In this document: piece after piece, positions 11,926-36,416 of the stretch
Numbering within the stretch: position 1 is the first letter of the stretch
Layout of the letters: the number at the start of each line of letters is the position of its first letter
DNA from: Spheniscus humboldti
Lineage: Eukaryota
DNA: 64,000 nt
Reading direction: 5' to 3'
Assembly (NCBI GenBank): GCA_027474245.1
Contig: CM049887.1
Coordinates: 20,815,762 to 20,879,761, forward strand
The notes under the pieces: generated by a model
What the model was told of the DNA's origin: nothing
Databases searched by the model: none
The model's input: only the letters and a program-made list of their open reading frames with translations
Program-made: the position numbers and the translations under genes

Positions 11926-12232
11926 ATGTGTCCATTAGCAGTACTGACACCATTTTCAGACAGGGCAAGGGGGAATGGCTTTAAACTAAAGGGTGGTAGA
12001 TTTAGACTAGATAGAAGGAAGAAATTTTTTTACGCTGAGGGTGGTGAAACACTGGCACAGGTTGCCCAGAGAGATGGTGGATGCCCCATCCCTGGAAACA
12101 TTCAAGGTCAGGTTGGATGGGGCTCTGAGCAACCTGATCTAGTTGAAGATGTCCCTGCCCATGGCAGGGGGGTTGGACTAGATGACCTTTAGAGGTCCCT
12201 TCCAACCCAAACTATTCTATGATTCTATGATA
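11926..12232 (+). mobile_element. CR1 3'-terminal fragment D
   Basis: ORF 11926-12192 reads RGNGFKLKGGRFRLDRRKKFF...GGCPIPGNIQGQVGWGSEQPDLVEDVPAHGRGVGLDDL, a CR1 ORF2 C-terminus. It ends in the CR1 microsatellite ctattctatgattctatgat. Confidence 0.8.
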
Positions 12233-13429
12233 TTTACATTCCTGTTATGTTCATGTTCAGCATACTTACATTCATTGATTATTGGTTATTGATATGATGG
12301 AACTAGGCCTGGCAATGGATTACCTCAGTGCTGGTAGTCAGAGGACATGGCTTTTAATGGTTCCTCTAGATCACTAACATTAATGTGCTAATGTGCAACA
12401 ATCTGCTTTCAGTAGGCAGGATCTGTATTTAACATGTTACATTGGTAAAGTAATAATGGTGAAGAGGTGTAAAAGAGTAGTTCACTCTGGTTCATACTCT
12501 TGTGTAGACAGAGTGTTTTCTAGAAGGCTGAATTAATAGAGAATACTACATCTGTTTTATCTGTGATAATTCTCTGTGGGTAAATGGAAAAAAAATTTAA
12601 ATAGTGCAAGATATGTACTTTACAGAGTTGTACAAGGCAGCAAAATCTATAAAAAGACTTTTAAAAGAGCAGTAAACTTTAAACCCAAGATGTTATGTGT
12701 TCTTAGCATAGATACAATTGTACTATTTAATTTTGCTTTGAGGGGTTTTAGTGAGGATTCACAAGGTCACTAAGACAGCGGTATGGTCCTGTTGAGGAAT
12801 AAGTCTACTTTCTGTCTGACAAAGAGTCGAGACACACTGTGCTGTTTCTTGCCCAAAAGAATTCTCATCTGCTTAAGTGTTCTCCTTTAATCCTCTAGAA
12901 AGCTGTCATTTGTATGTATACCTATGAAATAGCTTCACAGTAGTCAGACTGTTGGTGAGCAGAGCCTGCTGTTCTATCAGACTAGTAAGTGTTACCATAT
13001 TGGTTATATCTATGTTGTTCAGATAGTAACACTCCCTAGTGTCCCCAGGCACTGGACTTAGCTGTAAGATAGCTGTGTCCACGCTAAATAGCTCTGCTGA
13101 GGTTGAGGTTAATTAGTTCAAGATCAGGATCATTTTGATGCAATCTTACTGGTGTTTGAACCTAAGTTAATTTCTCTGCACAGCTGTGCACTGTGACATG
13201 TAAAAACTCATGTACCATGTAATTTCCTCGAGTGTTGTTATGAAATCTTAATACAGCAGCACATTCATTGACTCAGTTGCTTTCAGTTGGTCTGTCCCCT
13301 GAAAAAGGGATAGAATTTTTAAAATTCAGATTAAAAAAGCTTGCAATTCTAATTAAAAACAAAATATTTAAAAAGAGTATCGGATGAACAATTTAATTCA
13401 ATAATTACGTAAAGAATTTTTTTTGTTAG

Positions 13430-13529
13430 TTCCACAGCAAATCGACACATGCTGAGATCTTTGTCCCAATATGGTGCTGGAGCATTTGAATACTTTGACC
13501 CAAAATCAAAGTATAACTGGAAGGCAAAG
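13430..13529 (+). CDS. PARP4: PARP4 vWA exon: (G)STANRHMLRSLSQYGAGAFEYFDPKSKYNWKAK
   Basis: Phase 2 entry completes the Gly codon carried over from the previous exon. Donor |gtacat. Confidence 0.7.
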
Positions 13530-14802
13530 GTACATTTATAAATCTTGACTGTATTCAGTATGTGATCATTGTCTGATATATCAATATCTGATACTGCATA
13601 TCTTCAGTATCTCAAAATGGGAATTACTACTTTTCATGGGATCATGTGGCTTTGCTATTACAATAAGATCGTTCAGGAAACGTTTGATAGAAGGTGGAAG
13701 GAGAGATGCTTGTCTATTAAGCCTTCTTTATTTTAAATATAAATTGATACTAAGTGAGAAAGAGAAGTATTTAGTTTGAGTGTTGCAAAGGTGCCTTATT
13801 TTCAGCAGGAACACATGTATAGGAAGGGATATGAGAGCTGTAGAGAACCCTCAGTTCTTTGATAAGGGAGGGAATTTGTCACTGTAATTGCCCCACCTTC
13901 TCATTCAGATTGGTCACTGAACGTGTAAAAGAAAACAAGACAGCCATGACTTATTTTATTTTTTCTATTCTTTTTGAGAGAGCTCCTGTACTTTTCTTGG
14001 TAAGTGCAATAACACCAACTTGGAAAAAGTTTAAAAAATGTGAAACTATATAAATAATTGTCCCTGAATGGAAAAACATGACTTTACTTCTGTCATAGGT
14101 CACAGTCCATCTACATTGTCCTTGCTATAGTGATGAGGCCTGTAGCAATTGTATTGTGTAACTTTTGACTGTTGGTACATCTAGAAGTTTCAGGCAATCT
14201 AGGACCCCATTTGCAGTGCTTTTCAGTTTCCCTCTATAGTTATGTGTCTACAGCACTATCCTATGCCTTGAATCTGGTTCCTCCTGGAACAGTGACAGTA
14301 GAGAAGGTGCTGCAGCAAGGCTAGTATCTGGCACATTTTTGCCTGGGGGAATGGGTGAAAGCATAGATTTCTCCTCTTGCTATTCTGGCTGTCATTTGAA
14401 TGATATATGCAGAACTATCCAGAGCACGCCATGGAGATGTGCAGAACTGTTCGCATATCTCACAGTTCACATGTAGGAGATGGTGCTAAGTGTAGCAGTC
14501 CATATGCCCTAGCCTGTTTGGCAACCCTGATGGTTAGAAACTTTACTCTCAAATTTCAACTTTTACTTAAAAGAAGTCTCATTATTCCAGAAGCCAGTAC
14601 AACAATGGCTGAGTGATTCTCCTTATTACCTCCAAACATTAGACTAATTTTTACCAGTAATAGTATGTGACTTGTTTTAGTTGTTTAAAAAAAAAAATAG
14701 ATCCATTCACAAGGGAAATAGGTTATTTTCTATTGAGAGATTATGTTTTCTTTTGAAAGCCTACTAACAAACAGAGATAATTTGTTTTGCTTCTTTACAC
14801 AG

Positions 14803-14973
14803 ATACAGAGCCAGGTATCTAGAATATTTTCTCCAGGATGCAGTTCAGTTTCTATTAAATGGCAACAGTTTAATACAGGTGCACCAGAGCCAATGCACGC
14901 TCCCGCTCAAATACAGTCTTTATTTAACAATGAGAGACTTCTTGTCTATGGATTCATCCCTCACTGTACTCAG
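14803..14973 (+). CDS. PARP4: PARP4 exon: IQSQVSRIFSPGCSSVSIKWQQFNTGAPEPMHAPAQIQSLFNNERLLVYGFIPHCTQ
   Basis: Acceptor ctttacacag| and donor |gtaaag, phase 0 to 0. The sequence is typical of the post-vWA region of VIT/vWA proteins. Confidence 0.7.
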
Positions 14974-15373
14974 GTAAAGACTGGAATGGACATGCACTAC
15001 TGGGTAGAAATTCATATGTGAAACAACCACAAAGGAAATACTATATTGTATTATATGTGCTCTATGCAGCATGCACTTAGCTTCTTTTTCATTACTAAAT
15101 ATAATTAAGTTACTATTTAATTGTCATTATTAGTCTTCCCTCTAAGAAGTAGAGAGGATAAAATTACCTAATTTAATGTTCCTATCATTGTGCTTTGATA
15201 AATACAGGATTTCTTTACTTGTGACTGTCCCCTTGTTGTATGGGGAAATATATATAAACCTAGACATGCAAAGATTTACAGATTTGAGTTATATTTGGGA
15301 GACAGAACAGCATGCATGTGTGCTGGTAACATAGCATGAGAGAGGAGGAAACAGTATTTTTTTTTCCTTCTAG

Positions 15374-15454
15374 GCCACCTTAAGAGCTGTAATAAATGAC
15401 CAAGAACTACAGACTGTGGTGTCGACTACTGAACTACAGAAGACGACAGGAACA
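15374..15454 (+). CDS. PARP4: PARP4 exon: ATLRAVINDQELQTVVSTTELQKTTGT
   Basis: Acceptor ccttctag| and donor |gtgagt, phase 0. Confidence 0.55.
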
Positions 15455-17305
15455 GTGAGTTTGGCCAACATTATTCATACATGCCATAGTGAGACAAGCT
15501 GCTTCAAACAACTACGTGGTGCTTCATGCTCTTTTGAAGGAATTGAAATCCCTGTTTTCAGCAGGTCTTGCACTTTTATTTTTGCTTCTGATGTTTTAAC
15601 ACAGACCTTCAGTTTTCAGACTTTTAAAGAGAAACTGTTTTACATAGAAGTGATACCTTTCTCTGTGCTTTCTAACACAAAACTTAAGCTTCTCAGAATA
15701 GGAAGTGCTGCTTCTTATTTTGGCAGCCTGTTTGGGCTCTAGCTTTATTTTTAGGTTGGCTGTTCTTCAGGCGACCTCTGTGAGGAAGCTGCTGCAGCAT
15801 TCTCTTTCATGTTGTAAATTGTTGCTATGTGGAACATCTCATTGCTAGTCTGTCATCTCTAGAAATGTATGGAAAAAAAGAGACAGTAAAGTGTTACTAG
15901 CCTTTCCTCTGCTTCAGTAACAACGAAGTAAGGAGTCTTTATGCAGAGGAAAGCACAGAACCCATTTTGAAAAGGAAAACAAGCTAAAAAGAACCATTTA
16001 TTAAATCTAACAGATGTCTACACTCAAAAAATCAAAAGAATAGTCAACTTTCAGTAATAATTCTGATATGACTGTCACCCCTTCCCCACTAAGGGAAGCT
16101 GATTTGTTTTCAGACAGAAATTATTTTGTTCCCTATTTAGTGTAATCTACTTTGAAAGCTACTATCACAGGTTGGTTTCCATAAGGACAGTTGGTTTTCA
16201 GGGATGTGACCTTCTACAGGCAAATAAAATCGGCAAGCAGAAGCAATATATTTGCTTGCCATAATGAATTTTTGCTTTTAGAAAAATGCCTGTACTACAA
16301 ATTCCAGGTGCAGTTAAAAAAAAAAAAGAAAGTTTTGAAAGGTGTAAACTGAAATGGCAAAATGATAAAAAACAGGGTCAAAATTAGAAAAAAATATTAA
16401 TTCTTGATGCTTTAGATGAACTCTGAGAATTCCTATCTGTTTCTTTTGCCAATTTACCTTAGCTCAAAAGGTAACTATTTGCTTAAGAGGTTTTCTTCAG
16501 AACTGGCTCTCTTTGGCATCTGTCATATGCTTCCAAAAATGAGCCAGCAGGAATGTTTTGGCAATTGGAACTGGAATACCAGTTACCACATTGCCCCCAC
16601 AAAGCTCCCTCTCTTTGTTAGCTTTAACGTATTGAAGAGACCAAAATTGTTTTTCTTTTCTATGAAAGACTGGTTTAGTTCAGAAAAGTAATTTCTGGTT
16701 AGTACAGTTCAGTATTTCCCTTTTCTGCGTACAGCCCCTCAGGTCAAAAAATTACTTGATTATGGTAGACCTAGTGATTTTTTGAAGTTGAACACTCTAG
16801 ACTCACTTTACTTTTTCCCCAAATTCTGTATTTTTATGGACAGGATTAATTTACCTAACTTCACCTATATAGATATTGTTGGCTAAATCTGAGGTAGTGG
16901 TCCAGGCTCCATTTACAGTCACTGGAGAAAAATGTGTACGTCCAGAAGGGGCATTCTTCCTAACTGTTTTAGTTAGCCGTTTCAAGTTGGGATTAATTGC
17001 CTGGTGGAATTCTTCTGCTTGTTTGCATGCCTGCTTTTATTTCCTCACCCTTGACTCTAGAGAGAACGTACACAACAAGTAAAGACCTAGGTATTTTTTA
17101 GTTTGCTGAAATTAAGTGAAATAAAAATATACCTTAGGTGCAGGTTGTGATTGCTTTTCAAATGGAAAATTAGCTTGACCCTTCCTTAGAGAATGGGATT
17201 CTGTGTAAATATGGAAGCTAATTGCCTGAAGCTGTACCTCAGAAATGAAAGGAAGAATTAAAAAAAAAGTTACTACTTTTATCATCAGTTTAGTTTTCTT
17301 TCTAG

Positions 17306-17386
17306 GTGCTGCACAAACTCGCAGCAAGAGCTTTCAATAATGACTATGAAGATGGGATTCTTCATGAGAATGAAACAGAACATGAG
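17306..17386 (+). CDS. PARP4: PARP4 exon: VLHKLAARAFNNDYEDGILHENETEHE
   Basis: Acceptor tttctag| and donor |gtttga, 81 nt, phase 0. Confidence 0.5.
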
Positions 17387-18178
17387 GTTTGATAATCTGA
17401 AATAAAAAGTATACATTTAAAATGCTGAATAGCAAACATTTCAGTGGAATAGAGAAGATTTTCTTGCTTTGTTAAACATAACTAGAAGGTTGCAATTTTA
17501 ATATCATTTTAAGGTTAAAGTCACCATATAGTAATATCCTCCCAGATAAGATTTTGAAAAATTTTGGGACAGTCTTTTCTTCTTCACCACTATAAGAGTG
17601 TCCTCTATTGGCATAATGTGTGCGTATTTTTCCTAATCTATACCCTGTCACTGTAGGCCATTGGTGATTCTTCTTTTCTTGTGACGTATAACATTCTAGT
17701 TTCATGAGGATCAATACATATTAGTCCAGCGAAAGTCCATAGCTTTTGTATAGGATATGGTGGAAGATAATGACCTGTGTTTTACAGATAGACAGACTTA
17801 ATGACGTGATGATCTGTTAGAAAAATGTTTTTTAGCTAGTTAAAAACTTATATATTGCCATCTTGGCTTATTTGAGACTTCAGACTAATTCTTCTTATAA
17901 AATACAGCTTCTTACACTAGAAGAAGGATAGAACCAAAAGAAGTCTAACTAGAAGAAATGCATATCCCTGCCCAAAGTTGAGTGAGGGAGTAGAGAAAGT
18001 TAGAAGGGAGCAGACAGTTAGGCAGGCCAGTATATTCACATGAGCTCTTCCTTTCACATGTCCCTGTTTAGAGTGCATAAGTGTGTTTATAGGTACATGT
18101 TCAGTTTTGACATCAACGTTTCTTTTAGCTGATCCTATTTTTTCTACCTGTTCCATTTGTTAATACTTAACAATCTAG

Positions 18179-18274
18179 ATGAAGAAACAAATCTTGAAAA
18201 ACATGATTATTCACCTCAGCTTGGAGAACTCAATTATAAGCCAGTTTACAAGCTTCGTTGCAGTTGAGAAAAGG
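18179..18274 (+). CDS. PARP4: PARP4 exon: MKKQILKNMIIHLSLENSIISQFTSFVAVEKR
   Basis: Contains the conserved ...S.ISQFTSFVAVEKR motif of VIT/vWA-family proteins. Donor |gtatgt, phase 0. Confidence 0.7.
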
Positions 18275-19149
18275 GTATGTTTTCTATATAATATCTTGTT
18301 CCCACTAGCTTCTCTGTCAAAAGACTCTAAATTCTGTAACCTTGTACATATCAAAACTAGTCTTCCCTTTGCTGAACAATGATTGTTCTTTTACAATAGA
18401 GCTAAAACTATTATTTTTGACGTTATTTTGGTTTCTTCTGCAATATAGCAAGCTATTTTCCTTTTCTATCTCTTATATTGCTTGTCCTTCCTTTACAATC
18501 AAAGTTTGTCAATCTATGTGTTCCTGTTATGATTTGCTGCAAGGGTTTTTAATTCCTGATAGTGCTGTGGGAGCCAGACAGGTCAAAGGACAAGGCCAGA
18601 TGAAGAGTACTCTTCAATCCTTGGTGCATAAGCCACAGAACCCTTTCTCATAAAAAGTAAGGATGACAAACTATAGCAAACTGGCCACTTTAGCTATGGA
18701 TTGCTAAGTAATGGATTTTGTATTGGCAAAAGTCATTCTAGGGGAGTCTGTGTTAGGTGGAAGTCACAAGGAAAGCAAAACTTGAAAAATCACTCTTTAA
18801 TATTGCAGTAAACTATGGAACTTTTTCATTTGTTTTCAGTATTAGAACAGTGGTAGGAGAAACAAAAGCTTTGCAGCAAATGGAAAGAAACACATATAAA
18901 TGACAACCTTGAAATTCAAGGGTCAGTAAGAAGAGTTTTCAAATGGAAAGCTGTATCATGATAAGCAAGATGATATCAGTTGGATTAAGTATTAGATGGG
19001 GCACAGAGAATGGGAATTCATCTGACCAAGTACCTGTGTGTACATTTAGCAATAAATCAGTCACGTTTGCCTTCCTTTCATGGTCAATGGAAATAAATAG
19101 ATATTTTTAGAGCTTGATTCATCTCATCCTGAAGTTAAATACCTAAAAC

Positions 19150-20530
19150 AGTTCAGATTAATTTTCTTAAGAGGTCTTTTTCTCAGCACTGATTATAGGG
19201 GTACCTATAGTCACTATTTCGGATTCAAGGATCACTTCCTCCAAGCTCTAGAGCAGTCTATCCCAATGAACAGGAAGTCAGGCAAAAATGCCAGAAGGCC
19301 TGGTGTGAACATGGATGAACAAGGAACTCCTGGAAAAACTCAAACATAAAAAGGAAGTATCCTGACAGTGGAAGCAGGGACAGGTAACCTGGAAGGAATA
19401 TAAAGACACTATCTGAGCATGCAGGGACATCATTAGGAGAGCCAAAGTCTACATGGAGTGGGATCTGGAAGGGATGTCGAAGACAACACGAAGGGCTTCT
19501 GTAAGCATGTAAGTGGCAAAAGGAAGACTACGGAAAATGTAGGCCTGCTGCTGAATGGGGCAGGGGAACTGGTGACACAGGACATGGAAAAGGCTGAGGT
19601 ACTGAATGCCTTTGTTGCCTCAGTCTTTACTAGCAAAAGTGTCTTTACTTTTACCTTTGGAAATTCAAGGCTGCAGAGACCAGGGGGGAAGTTTAGAGCA
19701 AGGAAGATGCACCCTTGGTGGAAGAGGATCAGGTCAAGGAATACCTAAGCAAACTGGACATACATAAGTCTAGTGGGATGCACCCACAAGTGCTGAGGGA
19801 ACCGGCTGATGTCATTGCAAGGCCACTCTCAAAAATCTTTGAATGATCATGGTAATTGGGAGAAGTGCCTGAAGACTGGAGGAAAGCAAGTGTCACTCCT
19901 GTGTTCAGGAAGGGCAACAAGGAGGACCCAGGGAACTACAGGCTGGTCAGCCTCACCTTGATCCCTGGGAAGGTGGTGGAACAGCTAATCCTGGAAACCA
20001 TTTCCAGGCATACAAAGAATAAGAAAGTCATCAGAAGTAGCCAACACGGATTAACCATGGGGAAGTCATGCTTGACCAACTTGATAAACTTTGAAAATGA
20101 AGTGACTGATGTGGTAGATGAGGGGAGAGCAGTGGATATTGTCTGCCTGGACTTCAGTAAGGCTTTTGACACTGTCTCCCATATGATCCTCATACAGAAG
20201 CTGATGAAGTATGGGCTGGATGAGCAGACAGTGAGGTGGACTGAAAACTGGCTGAATGGCCAGGCCCAGTGGGTGGTGATCAGGGGCAGGAAGTCTAGTT
20301 GGAGGCCAGTGACTGTGTACCCCAGGGACCAATAGTGGGGCGTGTCCCTTTCAAAATCTTCATTAACGTTCTGGATGATGGGACAGAGTTGTACCTTCAG
20401 CAAGTTTGCTAATGATACAAAACTGGGAAGAGTGGCTGATATGCCAGAGGGTCATGCTGCCATCCAGAAGTACCTCGATAGGCTTGAGAAATGGGCTCAC
20501 AGGAACCTTGTGAAGTTCAAAAAAAGAGAA
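19150..20530 (+). mobile_element. CR1 LINE copy E (older subfamily), ORF2 RT region, 3'-truncated
   Basis: ORFs 19458-19748, 19856-20335 and 20342-20602 encode CR1 ORF2 sequence (...QDMEKAEVLNAFVASVFT..., PGNYRLVSLTLIPGKVVEQ, FSKAFDTVSH, FANDTKLG, LDRLEKWA). Homology stops abruptly after ...NLVKFKK at about 20525. Confidence 0.8.
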
Positions 20531-21767
20531 CTTTTACAGCTTTTTGCAGTGTCCAAAACAGTTCTTTATCATCACAATTTACTATTTCATATGGTATATT
20601 AATAAAAGTAGGCCTGAATGAAGAATTCAATGGATAAAACAAGGATACCTTTTCCTGATTTTACTGTTCGTCTTGATGTCTACATTATTATGAAAAAAAC
20701 AATACCAGCAGCATATGTACATTATAAGAGTTAGATTTTTCTGGAAATACTGCTTTCCTGAGTAATAACTCCAACATTTGCAATTAAAGATCAAAAGACA
20801 GACATGCATTCCAAAAAACATCTGATTAAAAAGCAACTATAAAATGCAATGCTGTGAAGTTATTAGAAATTCCCAGGTCAAGGACTGCTTTTCAAAGTAC
20901 GATAACTAAACTGAGTCAGTTTAAATATCTTTCTGTAATGCACCTGAATATTCCATCTGGTACTTGAGCAATATTCAGAAGAAAAAATATGTTGCAGATT
21001 AGCAAGGGAACACCTGTGTGATTTCATGAACTAGTTGTTTACGAAGGGTGTCAACAGATTATTATCTGTCATTCTGATTTTTATATATCTCTTTTTGCAA
21101 TTCTTCAAAAGATTCAGTTTCCCCTTGTCGATATGATGGCTCTCAACAAACAGACTTCTAGAATGTTATGTTTGAATTATGTCTGTAAATATAATAGCTT
21201 TAATATCATTTCTAGTCTAGGATGACTTTTTTGACCCAGTGGAACAAAACATGGCAGACATCTTAAGGCAAAAGCACCTGCACAACACAATGCAGTACCA
21301 TGCAGAAATACCCAAACTAGCCCATTCAGCTTGGCACTGTGTTATGCTATGTAATTTGTCTTCTTAACATGAGTTTGCAGAATGCAATGTATTTTAAGCA
21401 CATCTATAATAATGCTTATGTTTGCTTTCCTTTAAAAGGTGGCAATAGGATTCTGACAAAAAGAACTGCTCAAGATATGGATTTTATTTCAATTATGTGG
21501 ATTTGAACAAGTTATACATACAAATATATACTGTCCACCTTTATATTTCATGTGAATCTAATTACTGACAATACATTGTCCCTCAATATAATAAAAAATG
21601 TGAAGTTACATTTACTGGGCTTTTTGTATATATTGAGTATTTTTAATGTACTGTGTTATCTGCTTATTCCCCGTTTTCAACACATTTCAAACTTCAAAAG
21701 AAAAATGCACTGTTTCTATAATGCCAGAGGGTTTTCAGGTTCACAACTGTGATGCATTTTAATTTAG

Positions 21768-21958
21768 GATGCTAATAAAACTTGTTCTGCTGATGCTCCA
21801 AACATCCTGGAAATTATAGCTCAAGAAGATGTAGATTTTTTACCTTACATGGACTGGGACCAAAAGTCAATGGAATCTGGCTTCTTATTTTCAGAAGACA
21901 TTGCCTTTCAAGCTGCGATAACTACATTTAATATATGTTCTTATCGCCAATGTTTTTG
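21768..21958 (+). CDS. PARP4: Candidate PARP4 exon: DANKTCSADAPNILEIIAQEDVDFLPYMDWDQKSMESGFLFSEDIAFQAAITTFNICSYRQCF
   Basis: Acceptor taatttag| and a single open frame. The best donor |gtatat at 21959 leaves phase 2, which does not match the phase-0 start of the next recognised exon at 23316. Either the donor is mis-chosen or an exon is missing. Confidence 0.35.
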
Positions 21959-23106
21959 GTATATTATCCAGTTGTGGTGCTATATTGTATGTGTAACCAT
22001 ATAGTAATTGTTCATGAAACCTGTTTAATTTTTAATTATTTTGAATATAATTAATGCCACACAAGTACTATGTGGAATTTTACTATAAACAAAAAAAATT
22101 GGAGGAACCTGTCCCAAAAGTAAAGTACGCTTAAAAATATCATGAGTGTAGCAGAAGTTTTGAGAGAGAATATGATAATACAGACTGCTTCTCCCTTCCA
22201 GAAGAAACTAACACCTGTTAGGGCATTCTCTCATAAGAATATGCTAGTGTAGATGAAACCTTAAATTCAGCTCTAAGAAACGGGGGGATGGGGGCAGGAA
22301 GTTTCAAGGAAAATCAAGGTATTGATCCGTAACTAAGTCTCCACTAGCAGAGAGGTACAGCCAAAACAAAGAGACTACTGGGAATGGGGATAAGCATGAC
22401 TGGAAGATGAGGACATATTGCTAGTGTGCAATGGGACAATCTCTGGGGTGAAGGGGGGAGCAATGAGAGAAACTTGAACTAGTGAAATTGGATGTTTGCT
22501 AGTTATGGTAACTGTCTCTTGACTTTGGAAACCACAAGAGGTGCCTGCATCAGTTAGCCAGCAGGTATAATTCTGTCAGTCCATCAAGTCTTAACAGATT
22601 AAAGCTTTACATCTCCAAATTGTGTAGGGGACTCAAGAAAATAATTATTTGTCTATTAAATTACGTTGTGCATGACCATGATGTGCATTTAATACAACTC
22701 AGTAGCATCATCTCAGCCTGTAGTCTGTAATGTATTAAGACTGTGAGCTGTTCAGAACAGTATCTGGGTCTGTGTTCTGTAACTTAGGTCAGCTCATATA
22801 AAGCCATTTTCCTGATCCTTTGGCTCAAGAATTTCTAGGTAAAAGAGTACCAAACATCTACGTTGGTGTATGGTGGCAGTATAGCCCAGGCTCCCTAGCT
22901 TGTATGCAGCAGCTACTGGACCTCAGCTGGTACATGTGCCAGATTCACAACACAAGCAGGATCCATGCTTCACTTTGTGTAGATCTATCTTCTGTGTATG
23001 TACAACAGTATTGTACAGTGGAACTTCTTTGGCTCATAATCATCATTATGTTAATAATTTTTATCTCAATTATGTAAAATACCTCTCTGCTCATATTTTG
23101 GTACAG

Positions 23107-25490
23107 CCAAATTTTCCTCTGAATTTGCCCAGTGAAAGGTAGAATAGGGTAAGAAATTTTTTATTTAACTGATATATTACTTTCGTTTTGAACATATGAA
23201 TGACAGTATAATGATACTGCACACAATATAAGAAGAAATACTGTTTTGATTAAAAAGAGAAAAGTATTTTATTAATTCTGGAATTATTTTGTTTCCTTGT
23301 AATTTTACTAAACAGGCATGTTCCCCAGCAGTAGCCACTGTTTATTCAGCTGATTTCCAAAGTGAGGAAGGTGAACCTGAAAGCTTCCAATTTCAGCGTG
23401 AAGAAGTTGCTGTTGTTCAAAAGAGCGTCTCACCAAAAAACACAGCGCAGGGCTTTGTAAATGTTTCTTTGAAAAGAAACCTTGAAAGTACTTGCAGTCT
23501 CAAATCAAATTTCAGTTTTGATAGAGACATGACAAAGGAGAGATCTTCTGAAACAAGGTCACCTTTACCATGTGACCTTCCTCTGCCGTGTATTGCTCAA
23601 CCTTTCTCATCGTTTGGTTTTAAAGTTCAGTCAGGAGAAGGAATTGATCTGACTCAAAAAAAATCACTTCAGACACCTGCACTTACAAAATCAGACGTTT
23701 GTGTGGATGTTCCTGAACCTACCCCTCCTCCTTGCCCTCCTTATTCTTTGCAAGTACCAGTGGGAGGCTTGAAACATGGGTTTTATTCTGGTGTTGCTCC
23801 AATGCAGGGTTTAGTATTTGGTTCACCTATCCCTACCTGCACAAATTCTGGAAAGACTAATGTTGAAAAACAAGTTGTTCCAAAATTTCCTGTTTTTCAA
23901 GCTAATAGAAAAGAAGCATTGCCAGGGTCAAGGTGTAAGAAAAAGGCATTACATCAGCGTGATGTTACAGCTCCTGAAAAGGGATTTACTGAGGAGTTTA
24001 AGGTTGTGGTAAGTCTTCCATCAGTAGTCTTTTATATACAGGATGCTACACACGTCATGCTGAAATCCAAGCTGCATTCAGCTAATGAAAGCTGCCTTGA
24101 ACATTTACGTTTCAAGGTTCATGGATGTACAGCCAAAAAAGAACATGGTAAGACTGGTAATGAGGCTGCTTTCCAATTCAAGAAATCTGAACCTGAAATG
24201 CAGAAAGCACTCTTTTTGTTGGGTTAGTTTTTAGTTATTCTTTTTCAAAGTGATAAATCTTATACTCTGAATTCTGCCACTTGTTCCTTACAACTCTAAC
24301 AGGCGACTTTTAAATGGAATTACTTTGTATCATGAAGTAGTAGCTATATGGGTAATGGTGGTAGAATAAGATTCTTAATGAACATGACTCTCTTTGTTCA
24401 GGACCAATCTTGCTGGTTTATGTCAACACAGAGGATTCAGCAAAGACTTCCGTTCTGTTCAGTAAATAGGAATGAAATTCCTGAGCTTCAAAATCAGGTG
24501 CAGTACCCATCCTTTATTCATGCATTACCTAAAAATAAGATATGAGTAGAAGGAAAAGTTACCTTCAGCCCTGCCCGGAGATAAACATTTTGTAAATTAT
24601 TTTGTTTTCTTTGCTTTATAAACTGATTTTATAAAGAGCATGATGACATCAGTGTCATAGTATTTTTTTGTTTGTTTCATGGGCAATCCATCATGCTTAA
24701 GAAACAGTATAAAATTGGAGCCAACAAGTGGTGATAACCTCCAGAGTCAAATTTTACTCTGGATTTGCCCAGTGTAAGGTAGAACAGGGTAAGAAATTTT
24801 TATTTTAAACAATACATTTTTATTTTCAATTTGAATATACAAATCACAGTATAATGATAATTTGTATAATACAAGATGGCATACAGTTTTGATTAAAAAG
24901 AGAAAAAAAGTCTCACTAACTCTGGAATTATTTCATTCCTTGTAATTTTGCTAAACAGGAACTTTCTCTAGCTGTAGCTGATGTTTATGCAAATGCTTTC
25001 CTAAGTGGGAGAGAATGAACCTTTTTCAACCAGAAAAAAAGAGGTTTCTTTTTAAAAAGAGGAGTGGTTTTTAAACTTTTAAATGCAATTACTTTGTATC
25101 ATGATGTAGTAGCTGCATGGGTAATGGTGGTAAGATTCTTACTGAACATTATCCTCTCTAGGAACAATCAAGGTGCTTTATAACAACAGAGAAAGAAAGG
25201 ATTCAACAGAGAATTGAGCTGACTTCTGTAACCTGGAAAGAAATTTTTGCACTCCAAAATCAGGTGCAGTACCCATAGTCTATTTGTGCATTACTTAAAA
25301 ATAAAATATAGGTAGAAGGAAAAAATATTTTTACTTGAGTCCTGTCCTGAGATAAAGTAAAATACATTTATAAAATGTTTATAAACAGATTTTACAAGTA
25401 TATGATGACGTCAGTCATGCTATGTTTTATTACTTTCTCAGGCAGCTCAGCAATGGATATGTAAGGAACAGTATAAAATCAGAACCTTTC
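23107..25490 (+). repeat. Tandem duplication of two units (23107-24746 and 24747-~25490) of the large PARP4 exon plus its flanks; copy 2 is decayed with an internal ~880-bp deletion
   Basis: 23107-23320 aligns with 24747-24960 (ccaaattttcctctgaatttgcccagtgaaaggtagaatagggtaagaaatt versus tcaaattttactctggatttgcccagtgtaaggtagaacagggtaagaaatt), including the acceptor ctaaacag|. 24290-24746 aligns with 25060-25490. Copy 2 retains only about 75 nt of exon-like sequence, with stop codons. Confidence 0.8.
23316..24008 (+). CDS. PARP4: PARP4 large exon (693 nt, 231 codons), Pro/Ser-rich low-complexity region: ACSPAVATVYSADFQSEEGEPE...PEPTPPPCPPYSLQVPVGG...FTEEFKVV
   Basis: Acceptor ctaaacag| at 23314-23315 and donor |gtaagt at 24009. 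It is uninterrupted in one frame, phase 0 to 0. The supplied ORF 23289-24227 begins at a non-ATG (TTG) codon and is simply the open frame of this exon. Confidence 0.75.
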
Positions 25491-27301
25491 CACAGCCGCC
25501 ATCAGCTTGCAGCTTGGGGACTTCCTGGAACAAGTATAACAAGATATAGGGGAAGCTAAGTGGAAGAAATAGATGCAAATAATGCACATTATGCAAGAAA
25601 ATAAAAAGTAGTTGGGTTTTAGAGGATTGGACTGAGAGATGTTGCAGCAGGAACTTCCCCTGGACAGTCAGACCAATTGCTAGGGAAACGGAATGAAATT
25701 CTACTGTCCAAGAATCCTGCAGGTAGGAGTCAGAGCAGGTAACGTTTAGCTTTGTTGGTTTTGGTATATCCCTTGTGGCAGGAGAAGTCCCTGTTCTGCA
25801 TAACCCATCTCCAGTTTGGTAAGCTTACCAGCTTAAGGAGTGAGGTGGTGATCAACAATCAGATTGTGGGTCACACAGTCAATATCTGTAAGTAATAAAC
25901 AGAAGGAGGTTTTCAAGAGTATTACCTGATACAAGTGAAGAAGCCACCGTGGGATGCCCTCAGTGGAGACTCCTGTCATTTATCGGCAGAGATTGGCCAT
26001 TCAGCATAGTGGTATATTGAATTCCCTTTTGCTGGGAGTACACCCTGTACACTAGATTCAGTAAGTCTTCCAGGTGCCCCAGCTTCATGTTCCTTTGTGC
26101 AGCAGTGTCCACCTAGTATTTGCAGCCTCATGACTCTTTCTTGCTATTTTTTTAAAGTATTGCTTCGTTCTGTGTGTAATTAACTTTATTTTATGTGTGA
26201 AGTTTGTATGTGAAAGTACTAAAGTATAGCCAACCCCAGCATTAAGAAGAGATACATATTTTTCCTGTATTTTTGACAGGACATTTTTATCAAATTATTT
26301 CTAAACATTGAACCATTACCATATGCCACATGGATACAATGGGGATTAGACTAGTAGACTTGTGATTGACTCTTGTGGGAATTAACTCCCAAAGTGTGGT
26401 TGAAGATTTCTTCTTTTTCAGCAGAATTGCCAATTGTTGAATTTTAAAAAGAAAAGTTTCTTACAGTTTTTTACACTAATTAAACTTAATATTCTACAGA
26501 TTTTCACTTTTTACATAATTTGGATAATTATCATCTAAACATCCATTTAAAATCGTATATTATCTTCTAAATTACCTTAAATGAATGGTTATAAATTTGT
26601 GTCCACAGTTACAGTTTTCTAAGACATTCAGCTGCAAGGACAGGTAGAGTTTCAAAAGTATTTAATATTGAAGAATAAGTACTTGAACATCCTGCTGAAA
26701 GCCTGTCTTCCATCTGACCTGAGGGTAGCAAACCATTTGGCAGATAATTTTAATCATGAGAGTTGTCTATATTTTTGGCAGGGAAAGTCAGATAAAATAG
26801 GATTGGTTTTGTTAATATTGCATTTAACAACATATATAGTAAACTTAATAATTTTATAGAGACTTTGCATTCTCAGCAGAGGAGAGGGATCCTTTATTGT
26901 TTCTTTTGAGTAAGAGGAATGCTTATTTTTTAGCACCTTTAAAAATAATTTTCAGAAGGAATTTGTTTGAAATAAATTTGAAAAGGCTAGTGTTGTCATT
27001 GTGCATACTTTATATGGGAGTGATTTCGAAATGACTTTGTTCTTACTGTTTAAGGGTTTTTTTAGAAGGTAGGCTAACTACAACATTCCAGGTCAATTAC
27101 AGACATTTGATGGTGTATCAAACGTTTTTGAAGTTTAATATTTGAATCACCTAAATTGATTATGTGGATTTCAGGTTTTGTGTTTGTGTAAGCTTTTTAG
27201 AAAATATTTAAAGTAATTCCCCTATGTCTATTTTGTTCTTGCCAAATACATTTTCAGTGTCCTGAATCTTTGGCTTATCTCTATCTTTGTTTATTCCACA
27301 G

Positions 27302-27410
27302 GATGGCTCTTGGAATCTCAGTCCACAGTTGGGAAAAATCTTGAAATTTGATGTTGATCATTTAATTTTAATTAACAGTTTCCTTATTAGAAAAGGCATT
27401 CAGTCACTTG
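27302..27410 (+). CDS. PARP4: PARP4 C-terminal (MVP-interaction region) exon: DGSWNLSPQLGKILKFDVDHLILINSFLIRKGIQSL(G)
   Basis: Acceptor ttccacag| and donor |gtaaat, 109 nt, ends in phase 1. It resembles the human PARP4 C-terminal region ...KQKGIQSLG... as I recall it. Confidence 0.7.
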
Positions 27411-28295
27411 GTAAATACTTTTCTGTCATTAAAAAGCAGTATTTTGTATTATATTTCCTATCTGTATGTGTTATTACTCTATATGTCTAGTGGAACTCTC
27501 AATACGATATGCTCAGAATTTAAATGGATCTCTTAACTTAAAGTTTTCAAAAGTGCCTGATTTTAATAATACAGTTTCTTCTCAACTTCTCTCACAATAT
27601 GGTGTCCTGATTGCTAAGCACATCTCCTGGAGAAATGTGTGGAGGATGTGAGATAGTTGGAGTAGCAACAGAGGTTCTTTTATCTCAATTGTTGTATCTG
27701 CTATATTAATATCTACTAAAGAAAAAAAGGGAAGAAAACTCTCTCCTAGGAGAGAGGCAGAGATCACTTCTGCTTTTCACATTCCAAATAATATGAATAA
27801 GATTTATATAATTCTTCCCCACACACACCCCGTCTGCAGCATTCAGTATACACTCCACCTGTACACACTTTGCTGTTCGATTCTGTCAATTGGTGCTCTT
27901 TGCTGGCAGCAGACCAGAAAATTTGGGGGGGGGAAAAAAAGGCAATTCCTTCTTTCTAAATTATTAGAGGGCACGATGCTTCATCAAAGGACAAAAATCT
28001 TACAAGTTTCCCATTATTGCATGTATTAAAATCAAAGTAGATTAGAACCCAAGCAAACACAAACTGCAGAAATCCCAACAAAGCATTACCAAGTTTAAGT
28101 TTGAACGCCAGGAATATGTTTGTCAAATCACTAATGTGAATACCCTTGATAGTAGTGATTGTATGGTGAAACAATTAAATAGCATTAGGACAATTGATGT
28201 TTTAAAGTTATATGGAGTACTATGCAGAAAGTACCTTTTCTGTTGTCAAGAAATCTTTTAAATGGTAATACCGCTTCCCTTTTCTTCTTCCTTAG

Positions 28296-28428
28296 GCCCA
28301 AATGGAAAAGAAAAGCTACTGCAGTTGATTGCTACTCTTCTTGTGCTACAGTTCATCCGCTGCACAAAGGAATTGAAAGGGATAGTTTTCAAAACACTGA
28401 TGAAACTGGATGATTCATCTAGTTCAAG
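28296..28428 (+). CDS. PARP4: PARP4 C-terminal exon: (G)PNGKEKLLQLIATLLVLQFIRCTKELKGIVFKTLMKLDDSSSS(R)
   Basis: Acceptor ccttag| and donor |gtgtgc. The phase-1 entry matches the previous exon. It parallels human ...LLDLIATMLVLQFIRTRLEKEGIVFKSLMKMDD. Confidence 0.8.
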
Positions 28429-29795: not shown

Positions 29796-29946
29796 TGGTG
29801 TTCATTGGGCTTTTGAGTTGATCAAGAAAGCAATAGAGTGGGTAAGAAGAGTTGAGAGGCGATTTCCATCTATTTGCTATCAACTTGAACTTGGGAAAGA
29901 CTGGGATTCTGCCACCAAGAAGATATTGGGTATCAAGTTTATCTAA
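29796..29946 (+). CDS. PARP4: PARP4 terminal coding exon: (S)GVHWAFELIKKAIEWVRRVERRFPSICYQLELGKDWDSATKKILGIKFI*
   Basis: Acceptor acacacag|. The phase-2 entry completes the AGT codon. It is in frame to TAA at 29944-29946 and parallels human ...WAFEAIKQASEWVRRTEGQYPSICPRLELGNDWDSATKQLLG. Confidence 0.75.
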
Positions 29947-30379: not shown

Positions 30380-32340
30380 TATCTTCATAACATAACAGTG
30401 TTTTCAATTGGATGGTTTTGTAATTCCTACAGTGTGCCTTGAAATGCAAACTGTAGAACAGTTATTTTTCTCCTGCATTGCTTTGCTTAACAGTCATAGG
30501 TCAATTTGTGAATACGTAGGTCAGTTTTGTTAGGAATGAGTTCTCTTTTTTCCTGCTGTTACTCTGTATTCTGATTTTATTCTGACAAAAAACTAACCGA
30601 TTAGTTGTATTTTATACTGGACTAAACACTGAAGCCTAATAACAAAACCAGACTAAAAGCCATTTATTTTAATTTAATAGGCTTTTCACAGGTGTTTGAA
30701 TGAACACATTACCTCTTCTAAATTAAGGAGCTGCACAGAATCACTGTTTGGTACTTTGTGATCTGATGAAATGTAGTTAGAGATTTAGTACCACTGCTTG
30801 CACTGAGGCAGGATCCACAGAACATACTCTACGCTTGTTTGTCCAACAGTTGGACATACTCAGAAGCAGGAGATCCCACAGCCACCATAGGTAATGTGTT
30901 ACGCTGCCCTAGCAAACTGAGAACGCTCCCTAGCAGTAATAGAGGTGTTGTAAGAGGTTACTAAGGAAGACCATGGTGTCTCTTTCATAGGTGTTTTCAT
31001 GAGAATTTAAGCAAACATCTGCCAAGGATGGAGTAGATACACTTGATCTTGTAGAGGAGGTTGCTAAGAGGGATATCCTGCGGTCCTTCTGTTTCTAAGG
31101 TGCTCTGAATCCTTGTTTTCATGTGTGTAAGATACTGGCTCTTTTTAGTAAATAATACAACGGGAAGATTTGTACTATACTTTCTATTTGAAAAGAGCTA
31201 GGATATGGGTTTCTTAAGAACTAGAAAGACTTTAATGTAGACAACGATAAACTAGCTTCTAAATCTGCTGTTAGGTCTTTGGATGGTCAATTGTTGCATT
31301 ACTAGAGTTATCTTGGAAAGTAAATGCTGGCAAAAATATGAATAAAACAATTTTTTTTCCCCTTCACTGCAGTTGATTATTCATATAGCTTGGTGTTTTC
31401 ACTGTTGCAACGATACATCACGTGTGGGTCTGTACAAGAAGTATACATTCGTGCTAAAGCCTGAGTTTCATTTGAGTGATGTGTGTTCTTTAAGGAACTG
31501 TTTGAGATCCAATATATTAACACTCTGGCTCTAGTAAAGGCAGTTGAATAAGCAAATAGGATGTGGTTTATTTGCTTTTTCTTACAAGATTGTCTTTTTT
31601 TCTCCTGCATGTTACATCAAAAAAGGTGTGCTTGCCTATAGGCAATTATTTTAACATGCAAAATACTATAAAATTCAAAAAGATTCTTTTTCCTCGTGAG
31701 AAACCCCATTCCCCAGCAGGACCTCGTCCTGAGGTGTCTGTGTACGTCCATCTTTTGCGTTTCCCCAAAGCCTCATCCAGCTGAGGGCAAAGAACACCTT
31801 TGTACCGGGATATTCAGCACACTCTTGTCTTTTTATTTGGACAAGCCAGGCCCACCCGGGCACCATATCTTCTGGCAGGAAAGTCAACAGCCTGAACGTG
31901 CCTTTGAGTACCCCCAGTCACCGATAACCACCTCCCTTCTCCGGAGGAGAGCTACTGCACCAGTCAGCGAAACCTTACACGGGGGTCGAGCGGGGGTTCG
32001 GTCACGCTTTCGAGGAAGGGGCCCCCGGGCCAGCGCGCAGACAGGCAGCTCCAGCAATCACCCGGCGCTCGCCCCTCGCCGACAGGACCGGGGCTCCCGG
32101 CAGCCGTAGTGCCGAGACCCGCGACGGCCACCACCGGCGGGCGACACCAGAGCCTGGCAGGAACGGCCGGAGCGGGACAGCACCAGGCTCCCCGCTCCCG
32201 CCGCCCAGCTCGGCGGCGGGCTAGAGGGTGGCCCGCCTCGGGGCGAGGGGAGCCTCCGCCTTCACAGGGCGGGCCCGGCGGGAGCCCGCGGCCACCGGCT
32301 CCCTCCGGACCCTGCCGGGGGCCCCTGCTGCCGCCCCCAC

Positions 32341-32524
32341 CCATTGGCTGCCGCGGGCCGCCGCGCTGAGGGCACGAAGGCCTCCGGGCTCGGGGCCCCG
32401 CCCCCGCCCGTCATGGGCTGGCGGGGCGCCGATTGGCTGCGGCCGCCGCCTCGCTCCCTCCTCGGCCGGCGGTGGATGTCGCAGCCGCTTTTCACCGTTG
32501 TCGTTTGAAACTCGGCCCAAAATG
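32341..32524 (+). promoter_or_regulatory. MPHOSPH8: MPHOSPH8 core promoter module: two inverted CCAAT (ATTGG) NF-Y boxes at 32343-32347 and 32432-32436, an Sp1 GC box at 32392-32410, a CHR-like TTTGAA at 32504-32509, a uORF at 32476-32508, and a Kozak ATG at 32522
   Basis: Both boxes sit in a duplicated module ATTGGCTGC(C)GCGGCCGCCGC. The GC box is ggggccccgcccccgcccg. tcgTTTGAAactcggcccaaaATGgcg lies about 13 nt before the ATG. A small uORF ATG TCG CAG CCG CTT TTC ACC GTT GTC GTT TGA ends just before the main ATG. Confidence 0.5.
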
Positions 32525-32776
32525 GCGGCGGCGGCCGGCAGCGGGGCTGAGGCGGCAGCGGCCAGGCTGGAGGGGGCGGAGGAAGAGGAGGAGACGGCGG
32601 CCGCGGCGGAGGATGAGGAGGACGGGGAAGAAGACGGCAACGGGGCTGGCAAGGTGGCGGGCGCGGCGGCGGCAGCCGGCGGGGAGGCCGGCGGCGGTGG
32701 AGAGAGCGAGGAGGAGGAGGAGGAGGAGGAGGACGTGTTCGAGGTGGAGAAGATCCTTGACGTGAAGACCGAGGGG
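32522..32776 (+). CDS. MPHOSPH8: MPHOSPH8 exon 1: MAAAAGSGAEAAAARLEGAEEEEETAAAAEDEEDGEEDGNGAGKVAGAAAAAGGEAGGGGESEEEEEEEEDVFEVEKILDVKTEG (acidic N-terminus plus start of the chromodomain)
   Basis: First in-frame ATG in good Kozak context. The DVFEVEKIL... sequence is the known MPP8 chromodomain start. Donor |gtgagt at 32777, phase 0. Confidence 0.85.
32708..32733 (+). repeat. MPHOSPH8: (GAG)n coding microsatellite (poly-Glu) inside MPHOSPH8 exon 1
   Basis: gaggaggaggaggaggaggaggag, translated as EEEEEEEE. Confidence 0.9.
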
Positions 32777-35279
32777 GTGAGTGCGCGGCGCCGCCGCCTG
32801 TTAGCGCGGCGCCCCTGGTCGCTCTCCTGGGGCTGCGGCGGGGCCCCCCGGGCGGTGCGGCGGCGGCGGGTCCCTTAGGGAGGGACCCGTGCGGTGGCGG
32901 GGCTGGCGGGCAGCCCGGCCGCCCCCTGTCTGGGGCCGGTGGCTGCCCTGGGGTCGGGTTTCGCCCTGCTCCCCGAGGAGGTGCGCGGCAACACGGGAAT
33001 CGAGAGCGACTGTTAGCCATGCGCTGGCAGCAGGGTGGGCCTGAGCGTGCTTGGTCGTCTCGTGCTCTTCCCTCGCTTTCTGTGCGCGCAGGCTGCACGG
33101 GCAGGGACTGCTGTTCAGGCAGATTTTCTTGCACGATTCTTTAATACTTGGGCGAGAACTATGAAAAAATAGTAGTTCCGTTATAATTGTATTTTAAAAC
33201 ACGTGCATAATTTTGCAAGGGAGGTTTTTGTGTCTTACAGCGTTGACTAAAGAGACTAAATCTGGAGTACCTTCACTAAGTTTTTTTTTGTCTGCATTGT
33301 TAAACTGCTCTTAATGGCTGAACAGTAGTGTTTTGATGTAAAGTGAGTGCAGAAATGGGCAGGATTGAATATAATGGAGAACTTGGAGGTGGTTTCAAGG
33401 TATGTTTAGTGAGACTTACGTTTACTGGCTTACAAAATGCATGAAGACCTCTTAGAATAAGAGAGACTTTTTCCAATTAAAATAACTAGCTGTAGTGATC
33501 TTTGCTTTGTTTAGACAGAGGTATCATACCTTCTCTTCTTTCTTTGAAAGCAGCCTAGACTGGCTGGAGTTCTTCTGAAGTTTCCTAAACCTCAAATACA
33601 AAAAATAAATAATACAGCTTTTTTTTTTTAATGATTTTGTGTCTGAAAATTGTTTATTTTAACTAATTTATGGTTTTTATTTTAGGCTTTGGTCAGGTAC
33701 ATGATGGTATAGAATTATGTATGTTTAGGGTAAAACAGGGTTTTGAAACCGTTAGGTTGGAGAACCTTCAGATCAAGAATTTCTTAGATATTTGTGATGC
33801 TATCATGATTAGACTGTATCTTGGCTGAAATATCTCGATGGCTTAAGAATGTTATGCTTTTGAGGTAATACAGTATAGCTTTGCCTGTATGAAGCATTGG
33901 TCAAAATAATAAGTCAGGCTTGAAAATAGGAGTCCTTTTTTTCTTTTTTGTCTCTTTTTTTGTTGTTGTTTTTGTTTGTTTCCCCTGTATACTGGCAGGG
34001 GGGGGGGTGTCATACCATTCCACACACTTCTGAAGAGTACCAGAATACATAAAGTACCATCTCTTAAAAATGTCATTGGCATGTGCTGGTAAAAAGGTGT
34101 GTTACATCCCCTCTTTCTATTGACCTCCTCTTCCTCCAAGTAGCCCATTCTGCAGCAGGTTCTGAGCTGTATGCACTTCAGGTTTTCAGGCTGGGTCAGT
34201 GCAATTAGCTTTGCTGTATGTGTGTGCCTTATCCACTATGTGTTGGTTGTAGCTTTGCAGCATGGGCTCCAGTTGCATCAGGTCACCTTTCCGTTGCTCT
34301 TCAATGGAGGCCATGCTCCTGTGCCTCAGAAATACAGGGCAAGACAGATACTCGCACCCAGTCCTAACTTCTGAAATGGCTGGAAAAAGCTGTGTGTTAA
34401 ATTCAGTGGAGTATGTTTTATGTAGTCTGCTTTAGACTAGTGGTTCCCAGCTTGCAGATTCCCAAGTCTGATATAAAACCCAAGCAGATACACCGAGTTG
34501 GCCACTGTCCAGCACAGCATAAGGGCAGTTGCTGTGTTCCTGTGTCACAGTTGCAGAAGCGGGAGAGCTGGAGAGCACCACACAGAGAAGCTCCTTTCAT
34601 TTGCAGTCCTGATGTTGCTGGAGCTGGTAGTAGTGGTAGCATGAGAGGCAGCACTCCTGGGATGGGGCTGAGGAGTTAGACCTGCTAATAAATGAAGCAT
34701 TAACATGTACTACTTAAGAGAACAAGCAATAAAAGTTTGGAAATGTTTCCTCTCAGTATATCTCGAACGCCTTTCATACTGCACTACAATTATACTAAAA
34801 CAACAGGCTCCAGTGCAAATCGTGACATTCCCCAGTGGAAATGGGTAATGTTAACTCTGCTCTTTAATGACATGGTGATACCCCTTTTCATAGGAGTTGG
34901 TTCTAGCCCATCACCAGTTCTCATAGAAGCTACAGCAGTATAAAAATGCTTGGAAGTGTTCTATTATTTGTAAGTGATGCAGAGGAAAGCAATAACAATG
35001 CTGAGTAAAATAGTGTTGACGGGTGAGTGTAAGGCCGTGTATGTATGTTTAGTACGATGATCAATCTCCTGTCTTCACTTAAGCTGCGTTTTGTATCTCT
35101 CTCTATGTACTGGATGAAGGGTCATTCAACAGCCAAATAGTCTTACATTTGCATTAGACCCTTCTTTTATCCAGCTTTCTCAATTAATTAAAAAAGGACT
35201 TCTAACTCACTTTGTACCTGAGTTGCAAGGGTGTAACAGTAACTGCAGCTAACTGAAGTCCTGCATCTGAAATGGCATA

Positions 35280-35880
35280 ACCCTGTACCACCAGACATGT
35301 GAGAGGCCAGCTGGCTAGGAAGCAGATTTACAGGAAAGGAGCTGGGAGTCCCCGCAGACAAGTAGGTTGAACATGAGCCGGCAGTTCTTGCAGCAGAGAA
35401 GGCCAACAGCATCCAAGACTGTACCCAGCAGATCAAGGGAGATGCTTCTTCCTCTCTTTTCAGCACTGTTGAGATGCATCTGGAGTACTGTGTCAAGTTC
35501 TGAGCTCCCCAGGACAGAAGAGACATGGACATACTGGAGTGGAGGGTTATGAGAACAGTTTAGGGAGCTGGAGCACAGAAGGCTGAGAGAGCTGGGTTTG
35601 TTCTGCTGTAAGAAGAGAAGAATCAGGGATGATCATAGTGGTACCTATATCTACTTAATGGGAGGATGTAGAGAGGACACAGTCATCCTTCTCAGAGGTA
35701 CGCAGTGAAAGGATGAGAGAGGCAGTGGACACAAGCTGGAACACAGGGAAATCTGAATAGATACACTTGACTGGGCAGATTTCTGAGCAGCCTGATATAG
35801 TTGATCCTGCTTTGAGCAGGGCATTTTACTTGTTAGTTCTGGAGATCCCTTATAACCTAAGCTATTCTGTGACTGTAACA
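35280..35880 (+). mobile_element. Old, degenerate CR1 3' portion in MPHOSPH8 intron 1
   Basis: Frame-broken similarity to the CR1 ORF2 C-terminus (LNMSRQ..., [34 protein letters not shown]...EKRRIRDD...). It ends in the CR1 tail ...ctaagctattctgtgactgtaac. Confidence 0.5.
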
Positions 35881-36354
35881 AGAAAGTTACTAGTCATTTA
35901 TTTCACGAGTAACCCCATTAGAAGAAAGAAGGAGAGACAGGTGAACATGATTTTGAAAACTAATTCCTAAATCAAGAGTGTATGGTTAAGCTAAATTATA
36001 GGAGGAGAAGTATTACACTAATGTATCTGAATATAGGCTATTTATTTATGTGTCTGTGAAGCAAAATACAGAAGATTGTAAGTAGAGTTGATTGCTAAAG
36101 TTTAATGGCATATATATAGACTTGGTCAAAGGTTAATGGTGCTCAGGCAAAAAGGTAAATTTATGGACATAAATACATTTAATAGTAAGTGTCAAATGGC
36201 ACTTCTTTTGAAGCTTTCCTTCTCCAGGCTTGGTTAGCAGCGTAGGATCTTTCAGAGCATTATCAATCTATTTTTGAAAGAAAGAAGTACTATTATTTTG
36301 CCTCTCTAAAGGTGCTTTCCTTAGTACATTTGCTAATACTTTTTTTTATTGTAG

Positions 36355-36416
36355 GTTTGTTTGGTTTTTGGGGTTTGGGGTTGGGTTTTTTTGGGGTTTT
36401 TTTTTTTTTTTTTTAG
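36355..36416. repeat. T4G4-like G/T low-complexity tract: gtttggtttttggggtttggggttgggtttttttggggt(t)n
   Basis: Four G3-4 runs separated by T runs, followed by T18. Similar tracts occur at 5830-5880 (as C/A on +), 33940-34007, 45815-45850, 52928-52972 (C/A), 53675-53715 and 58920-58995. Confidence 0.8.

Follow-up and report, generated by a model that had tools for sequence, protein, structure and literature searches.

The PARP4 locus and its duplicated segment

We analyzed a 64-kb window of Spheniscus humboldti DNA (64,000 nucleotides of contig CM049887.1, hereafter the window) in which the gene PARP4 carries, on the plus strand, two adjacent copies of a segment that includes its largest exon. 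The gene was recognized by homology: conserved open segments of the plus strand retrieve PARP4-named proteins from emu, blue jay, kagu, camel, lizards and snakes, and tblastn searches with tuatara, gecko and emu fragments delineate an intact chain of exons from the VIT domain to the stop codon, with the VIT exons at ~6.5-7.1 kb, the vWA exons at 8.8-13.5 kb and further exons up to the terminator (Table 1). A VWA domain match supports this assignment. Moreover, the exons that we call A1 and B2, joined to the three last exons, are translated without interruption to the terminator, and the product matches residues 1567-1707 of human PARP4 (PDB 9bw6, 9bw7, 11jf) with 165.5 bits and an E-value of 8e-48. 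Judged by these similarities, the gene holding the duplication is PARP4.

The original prediction for this region was a tandem duplication of the large exon, to be abandoned if a self-alignment revealed no extended colinear similarity between the two intervals. A repeat finder, a global alignment and blastn of the window against itself all yield two colinear blocks, each with an E-value of 2e-56: positions 23105-23378 resemble 24745-25022 (77.8% identity over 279 columns, at an offset of about 1640-1644) and positions 24306-24715 resemble 25075-25479 (72% identity over 426 columns, at an offset of about 760-770). The copies are adjacent, lie on the same strand and are colinear, with a similarity far above chance, which is what an intragenic tandem segmental duplication should look like, and the prediction stands. 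The duplicated unit held two coding exons, A (693 nt) and B (about 100 nt), and their present order is A1-B1-A2 (a remnant)-B2. Between the blocks the offset falls from ~1640 to ~765, a net shortfall of unit 2 of ~875 bp. The stretch missing from A2 and its downstream intron measures 879 bp, in agreement with the predicted loss of about 880 bp; 583 nt of it are exonic and 296 nt intronic. For the last ~25 nt of unit 1 (24720-24744) there is no match in unit 2 or in the sequence that precedes unit 1. Tandem Repeats Finder, whose longest period is 500, reported nothing.

Could the repeat be an artefact of assembly, a transposon or another kind of dispersed repeat? CR1 elements occur in other parts of the window, and we found no support for either explanation. 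Self-comparison of the 64 kb by blastn gave no third copy of the unit, no Rfam family reached its threshold over positions 22500-26500, and the units carry exons of the gene in the correct order. They differ from each other by 22-28%, too much for a collapsed or duplicated haplotype, and the same arrangement recurs in independent assemblies of four other lineages. An artefact or a mobile element is therefore scarcely credible here.

Table 1. Position in the window of the duplicated units, their exons and relics, and the downstream PARP4 exons
Feature	Position	Strand	Description
Duplication unit 1	23105..24744	+	5' intron flank, exon A1, intron, pseudo-exon B1, 3' flank; colinear with unit 2, E 2e-56
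Exon A1, working large exon (by comparison)	23316..24008	+	693 nt, phase 0-0, 231 codons; open in frame 0 only
Unit-1 segment without unit-2 counterpart	23426..24304	+	Extent of the ancestral 879-bp deletion; same break in L006
58-nt intronic block upstream of B1	24306..24363	+	93% identical to its paralogue at 25075-25132
Pseudo-exon B1	24402..24497	+	96 nt; open in frame 0 in the window; AG acceptor, pyrimidine tract and donor CAG/gtgcag intact
Duplication unit 2	24745..25490	+	5' flank, A2 remnant, exon B2, 3' flank; 879 bp shorter; orthologous in L001, L002, L003 and L006
A2 remnant	24959..25061	+	~103 nt; paralogous to the first ~110 nt of exon A; five-sequence alignment
Paralogous 58-nt block upstream of B2	25075..25132	+	Repeat-finder family D6, alignment
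Exon B2, working small exon (by comparison)	25162..25263	+	102 nt, phase 0-0, EQSRCFITTEKERIQQRIELTSVTWKEIFALQNQ; N-terminal edge of the MINT (vault-binding) domain
Next PARP4 exon (DGSWNLSPQ...GIQSL)	27302..27410	+	Part of the MINT domain
PARP4 MINT-domain exon	28296..28428	+	tblastn chain, translation
Last PARP4 coding exon	29796..29946	+	Stop TAA 29944-29946

Homology of exons A1 and B2

The intact 693-nt exon that had been expected in unit 1 is exon A1, which is flanked by an acceptor (ctaaacag/G; a slash marks the exon boundary) and a donor (GTG/gtaagt). Its description as a Pro/Ser-rich exon holds only in part, the content being mildly elevated at 10.4% for each residue. A1 matches the emu PARP4 fragment P0011, and both the exon chain and the exon order of emu show it to be the largest exon, immediately 5' of the MINT-domain exons; by this position it corresponds to human PARP4 exon 30 as its putative equivalent. 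No Pfam domain was recognized in exon A.

Exon B2 has the acceptor tcctctctag/ and the donor CAG/gtgcag. In the emu fragment P0011 the large exon is followed by CFLTAQKEIIKQKSLTSVNWNEIFDLQNQ and then by DGSWNLSPQ, the small exon running CFLTAQKE...WNEIFDLQNQ, and in a tblastn search with this fragment the small exon maps to B2 (63%), not to B1. The two small exons were also compared through the human PARP4 sequence deposited in the PDB: B2 with the C-terminal exons aligns from residue 1567 with the score given above, whereas B1 with the same exons aligns only from residue 1574, with 156.8 bits. Pfam returned no match for B1 or B2 joined to the C-terminal exons; PF26156, which is listed for homologous database proteins, may be outside the set of models searched. 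Unit 2 had been regarded as the decayed copy, and this is true of its A exon; yet B2, the better match to emu and human, lies in unit 2, and the relic B1 in unit 1.

Age of the duplication

Orthologous contigs were recovered through the open reading frame of exon A; a protein-database search with a five-sequence profile of exon A added only P0027/L006. Four other bird lineages are compared here: L001 (98.2% identical to the window over 11.8 kb), L002 (~83-89%), L003 (86%) and L006 (72-80%). Three additional contigs from independent runs (L007-L009) are 100% identical to L006. The number of units in orthologous bird loci had been proposed as a check of the prediction, and in all four lineages both units, or their remains, are colinear with those of the window and share the same break in A2.

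L006 is without B1, yet the A2 remnant is present between A1 and B2 and ends at the same right-hand break; in addition, it keeps 11 nt of exon A (cttccaatttc) that are absent from A2 in the window. Because the A2 remnant of L006 has the same break, the duplication and the 879-bp collapse precede the deepest split among the sampled lineages. In an unrooted neighbour-joining tree of the B region, the unit-1 copies split from the unit-2 copies and L006 in 300 of 300 bootstraps, that is, the copies cluster by unit and not by species. Kimura two-parameter distances are 0.30 between the units, 0.10-0.12 between the window and L002 or L003, and 0.25 between the window and L006.

By these comparisons the duplication is an ancient and fixed event. 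The original suggestion of a structurally unstable region gains no support from this picture, since both the duplication and the collapse are common to four other lineages of birds, the most distant at about 75% identity. The identity of the window to kagu and jay is 80-84%, and the window is nearer to these two and to L002 and L003 than to L006, which suggests a neoavian source for the window and, for L006, either an outgroup or a fast-evolving lineage. Identity to the Neoaves loci is 80-89%, as against about 75% for L006, and gives no indication of the galliform origin implied in the original prediction.

Decay of the inner copies

The second copy of the large exon was predicted to be collapsed and to bear stop codons, and an in-frame TGA is indeed found in A2 at 25016-25018. 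The acceptor ctaaacag/G is also kept, as claimed, at a position one or two nucleotides away from the predicted 24958-24960: its AG occupies 24957-24958, which makes 24959 the first 'exon' base. The context of this acceptor differs from that of A1 at 3 of 28 nt. Downstream, a donor-like gtg/GTAAGA at 25130 would delimit a potential cassette of 171 nt; scored with a rough splice-site matrix, it falls just below the cut-off. This intronic segment has the sequence elements of a poison exon, namely a plausible acceptor, a donor-like site 3' of it and a premature stop in frame, and the A2 remnant is 95-96% identical between the window and L002 or L003, against ~90% for the flanking intron.

These features are those on which the original prediction relied in proposing that the region is currently unstable and that the collapsed A2 could act as a cassette inducing nonsense-mediated decay, through the acceptor at 24959. 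Well-studied poison exons are strongly conserved. Of the five lineages, on the other hand, two have lost the acceptor of A2: its AG has become AA in L003, and in L006 a 59-bp deletion removes it together with the first 29 nt, so that the conservation of splice sites expected of such a cassette is missing. The surplus of conservation corresponds to 4-5 observed differences against ~10 expected in 103 nt, and the antiquity of the duplication and of the collapse argues against instability. We consider a poison cassette in a presently unstable region to be very unlikely.

The small exons raise a different question. In the window B1 and B2 share their phase (0-0) and have similar lengths (96 and 102 nt), both are open, both have AG acceptors and an identical donor 9-mer (CAG/gtgcag), and the pyrimidine tract of B1 is better than that of B2; B1 is open also in L002 and L003. 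Within the window, this is the configuration of mutually exclusive exons, and this species might use B1 and B2 alternatively, one excluding the other or B1 being added in frame as a cassette, with isoforms that differ at the first MINT segment. Conservation of both copies, which would be expected in that case, is not observed. While the AG, the GT and the open reading frame of B2 are preserved in all five lineages, B1 is damaged or deleted in each of the other four: it is frameshifted by a 1-nt deletion in L001, although this lineage is 98% identical to the window, its donor GT has become GG in L002, its pyrimidine tract is lost through a 16-nt deletion in L003, and in L006 it has disappeared in a 581-bp deletion, equivalent to positions 24319-24899 of the window and identical in L007-L009. 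The nucleotide identity of B1 to its orthologues, 85-87%, is less than the intron level of ~90%. Alternative use of B1 and B2 is therefore unlikely. Quite unlikely, too, is a more elaborate version, in which B1, included in place of B2 or with it, yields an isoform whose first MINT segment is devoid of the Trp/Phe pattern of B2 (...SVNRNEIPELQNQ vs ...SVTWKEIFALQNQ) and might dock differently in the vault, while in parallel A2 serves as a low-level poison exon.

Proposed origin and resolution of the duplication

The observations on this locus are very probably explained as the fossil left by the ancient duplication, in tandem, of a ~1.64-kb PARP4 segment with two coding exons, in which A1 is spliced to B2 and the inner copies are relics. 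Duplicating the A-B segment in tandem would be equivalent to inserting B1, the junction and A2 into the A-B intron, with the resulting order A1-B1-A2-B2. Both exons being in phase 0-0, splicing of A1 to B2 would restore the original A-B message, and because it does so the inner copies would have been free to decay. The A1-B2 intron (24009-25161) would now contain both of them. A2 would have undergone the 879-bp loss early, in the common ancestor of the sampled lineages, and it carries a stop codon; B1 would have decayed slowly and neutrally, being inactivated or deleted independently in each lineage and intact in the window by chance. By comparison with other species we infer that the splice in use joins A1 to B2 and skips B1 and A2. 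Nothing indicates a present function of the relics.

Several points weigh against this explanation. In the window the acceptor, donor and open frame of B1 are at least equal to those of B2, and its pyrimidine tract is the better one; inclusion of B1 is possible in this species because its acceptor, donor and frame match the quality of those of B2. The ratio of nonsynonymous to synonymous differences per site (pN/pS) in B1 is 0.4-0.6, a value that derives from only 12-14 substitutions, too few to speak for or against its being a relic. The Trp that separates B2 from B1 is a Leu in L006, a single residue that is not decisive in itself. Exon usage is assigned here by homology, with a predicted emu protein and human PARP4 as the references. 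Finally, an unrooted tree by itself cannot order the duplication with respect to the L006 split, and the proposed order depends on the A2 remnant of L006.

As a consequence of the explanation by an ancient duplication, the local gene model is corrected: the A1-B2 intron has two exon look-alikes, of which B1 could easily be mis-annotated as coding in this species. More generally, a PARP4 exon already known for positive selection and variable length was once duplicated in full, along with the beginning of the vault-docking domain, and the gene would have returned to single copies by way of the outer pair. The mechanism is not new, and the locus offers a tidy case of the way in which a multi-exon tandem duplication is resolved.

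Rapid evolution of exon A and comparison with known systems

The open reading frame of exon A is kept in four species, with lengths of 693, 693, 822 and 687 nt, and its length changes through in-frame indels. For example, L002 has the 15-residue unit S-A-T-R-S-V-A-P-M-Q-G-F-V-F-G in three additional copies, arranged in tandem. Exon A is open in every lineage, and its identity is 81-82%, compared with ~90% for the flanking introns. The pairwise ratio of nonsynonymous to synonymous substitution rates (dN/dS) is 1.2-2.5, with Fisher P values of 0.01 and 0.0002 in two of the three pairs, although errors of alignment may inflate dN.

According to Daugherty 2014, human exon 30, the largest of PARP4, is disordered and positively selected and varies in length, and its equivalent differs in length and sequence among vertebrates, in line with the remark in the original prediction that this region of PARP4 is variable; a dN/dS of 2.05 is given there for this exon between chicken and turkey (PMC4038475). 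The rapid evolution of exon A reproduces the positive selection already published in that source. A1 shares with human exon 30 its size as the largest exon, its location 5' of the MINT exons, a dN/dS above 1 and a variable length. The published work differs in that it concerns selection at the level of substitutions and length, and its passages on duplication and on PARP4 contain no duplicated copy of the exon (PMC4038475). We found no published report of this PARP4 duplication in the open-access literature searched. The duplication is no evidence of ongoing instability; over evolutionary time, nevertheless, the region is labile, as is illustrated by the in-frame indels of exon A, by the two extra deletions in L006 and by the loss of ~18-20 kb of PARP4 in kagu and two oscine songbirds.

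The classic papers on tandem exon duplication are those of Kondrashov and Koonin in 2001 and of Letunic and co-workers in 2002. The phenomenon is common, and more recent reviews show that a large share of the duplicates stay silent or serve as mutually exclusive exons (PMC9013439, PMC9741552). The PARP4 case resembles these systems in having homologous exons adjacent to each other on the same strand, with conserved phase, derived from a local segmental duplication within the gene, and in having one copy of each exon apparently still used. Unlike them, the PARP4 unit contains two exons, and the survivors, A of unit 1 and B of unit 2, belong to different units and form the outer pair. Moreover, the spare copies decay, with no sign of a conserved alternative use.

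Minor sequence features of the units

The 58-nt blocks of Table 1 are located 40-100 nt upstream of each B exon and are 93% identical between the units, against 72-80% for the remainder. Between the window and L002 or L003 the identity of the block is 93-97%, and it is only ~78% in L006. This block could be a splicing element or a tract of gene conversion. An Rfam scan of positions 22500-26500 (E <= 5) gave only a chance match at 26400-26441, with 16 bits against a threshold of 49, and the block is consequently no described RNA.

The first ~45 nt of each unit (23107-23148 and 24747-24788) look like a mini-exon, of the form cag/...AGG/gtaaga, with donor-like sites at 23149 and 24789. They belong to the best-conserved 5' block of the units (85%) and contain stops in all three frames.

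In the intron after A1, in which the reading frame of this exon continues past its donor to 24224, a 34-nt stretch (24165-24198) resembles the start of exon A (23349-23382) at 26 of 34 positions. The likeness is above chance: it was equalled in none of 2000 mononucleotide shuffles when the first 150 nt of the exon were considered, and has P = 0.008 against the whole exon. It may be the trace of an even older partial duplication. Recombination between the direct repeats at 23337-23382 and 24153-24198 was also considered as the cause of the A2 deletion, and was rejected because the A2 remnant is colinear on to ~23425.

PARP4 in other birds and neighbouring genes

In the loci of kagu, jay and warbler, PARP4 is located between CENPJ and MPHOSPH8, and in the window a gene resembling MPHOSPH8 comes after PARP4, a further point in favour of the assignment to PARP4. 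In kagu, blue jay and common yellowthroat the PARP4 locus, labelled 'LOW QUALITY PROTEIN' in all three, is missing ~18-20 kb with the vWA exons and exons A and B, and the whole duplicated region is absent with them. The gap is equivalent to positions ~8643-28273 of the window and falls at 19285-19476 in kagu (L004), at ~26246 in blue jay (L005) and at 25698-25953 in common yellowthroat (L011), with no runs of N in these three loci. The two songbirds share a jump from window position 9502/9809 to 28035; the break points of kagu differ, and a CR1 fragment is found at its junction. From these alignments PARP4 looks internally deleted in oscines and, independently, in kagu, and it is probably pseudogenised there. 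We found no paper on such a deletion in oscines or kagu. For vault biology, these large deletions in songbirds and kagu may weigh more than the duplication described here.

Downstream of PARP4, a second gene extends over ~32200-47000, with a CpG-rich start at ~32.2-33 kb, a chromodomain exon at ~37.5 kb, a Lys/Ser/Glu-rich exon of 356 codons at 38581-39648 and ankyrin exons at ~45.9-46.9 kb. These features fit MPHOSPH8, the gene that comes after PARP4 in kagu, jay and yellowthroat as well.

Two near-identical open reading frames of CR1-type reverse transcriptase, of 310 codons each, lie ~3.7 kb apart in a PARP4 intron (434-1916 and 4250-5606) and represent either two insertions or another local duplication. 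A third, more degraded CR1 is located at 19856-20599.

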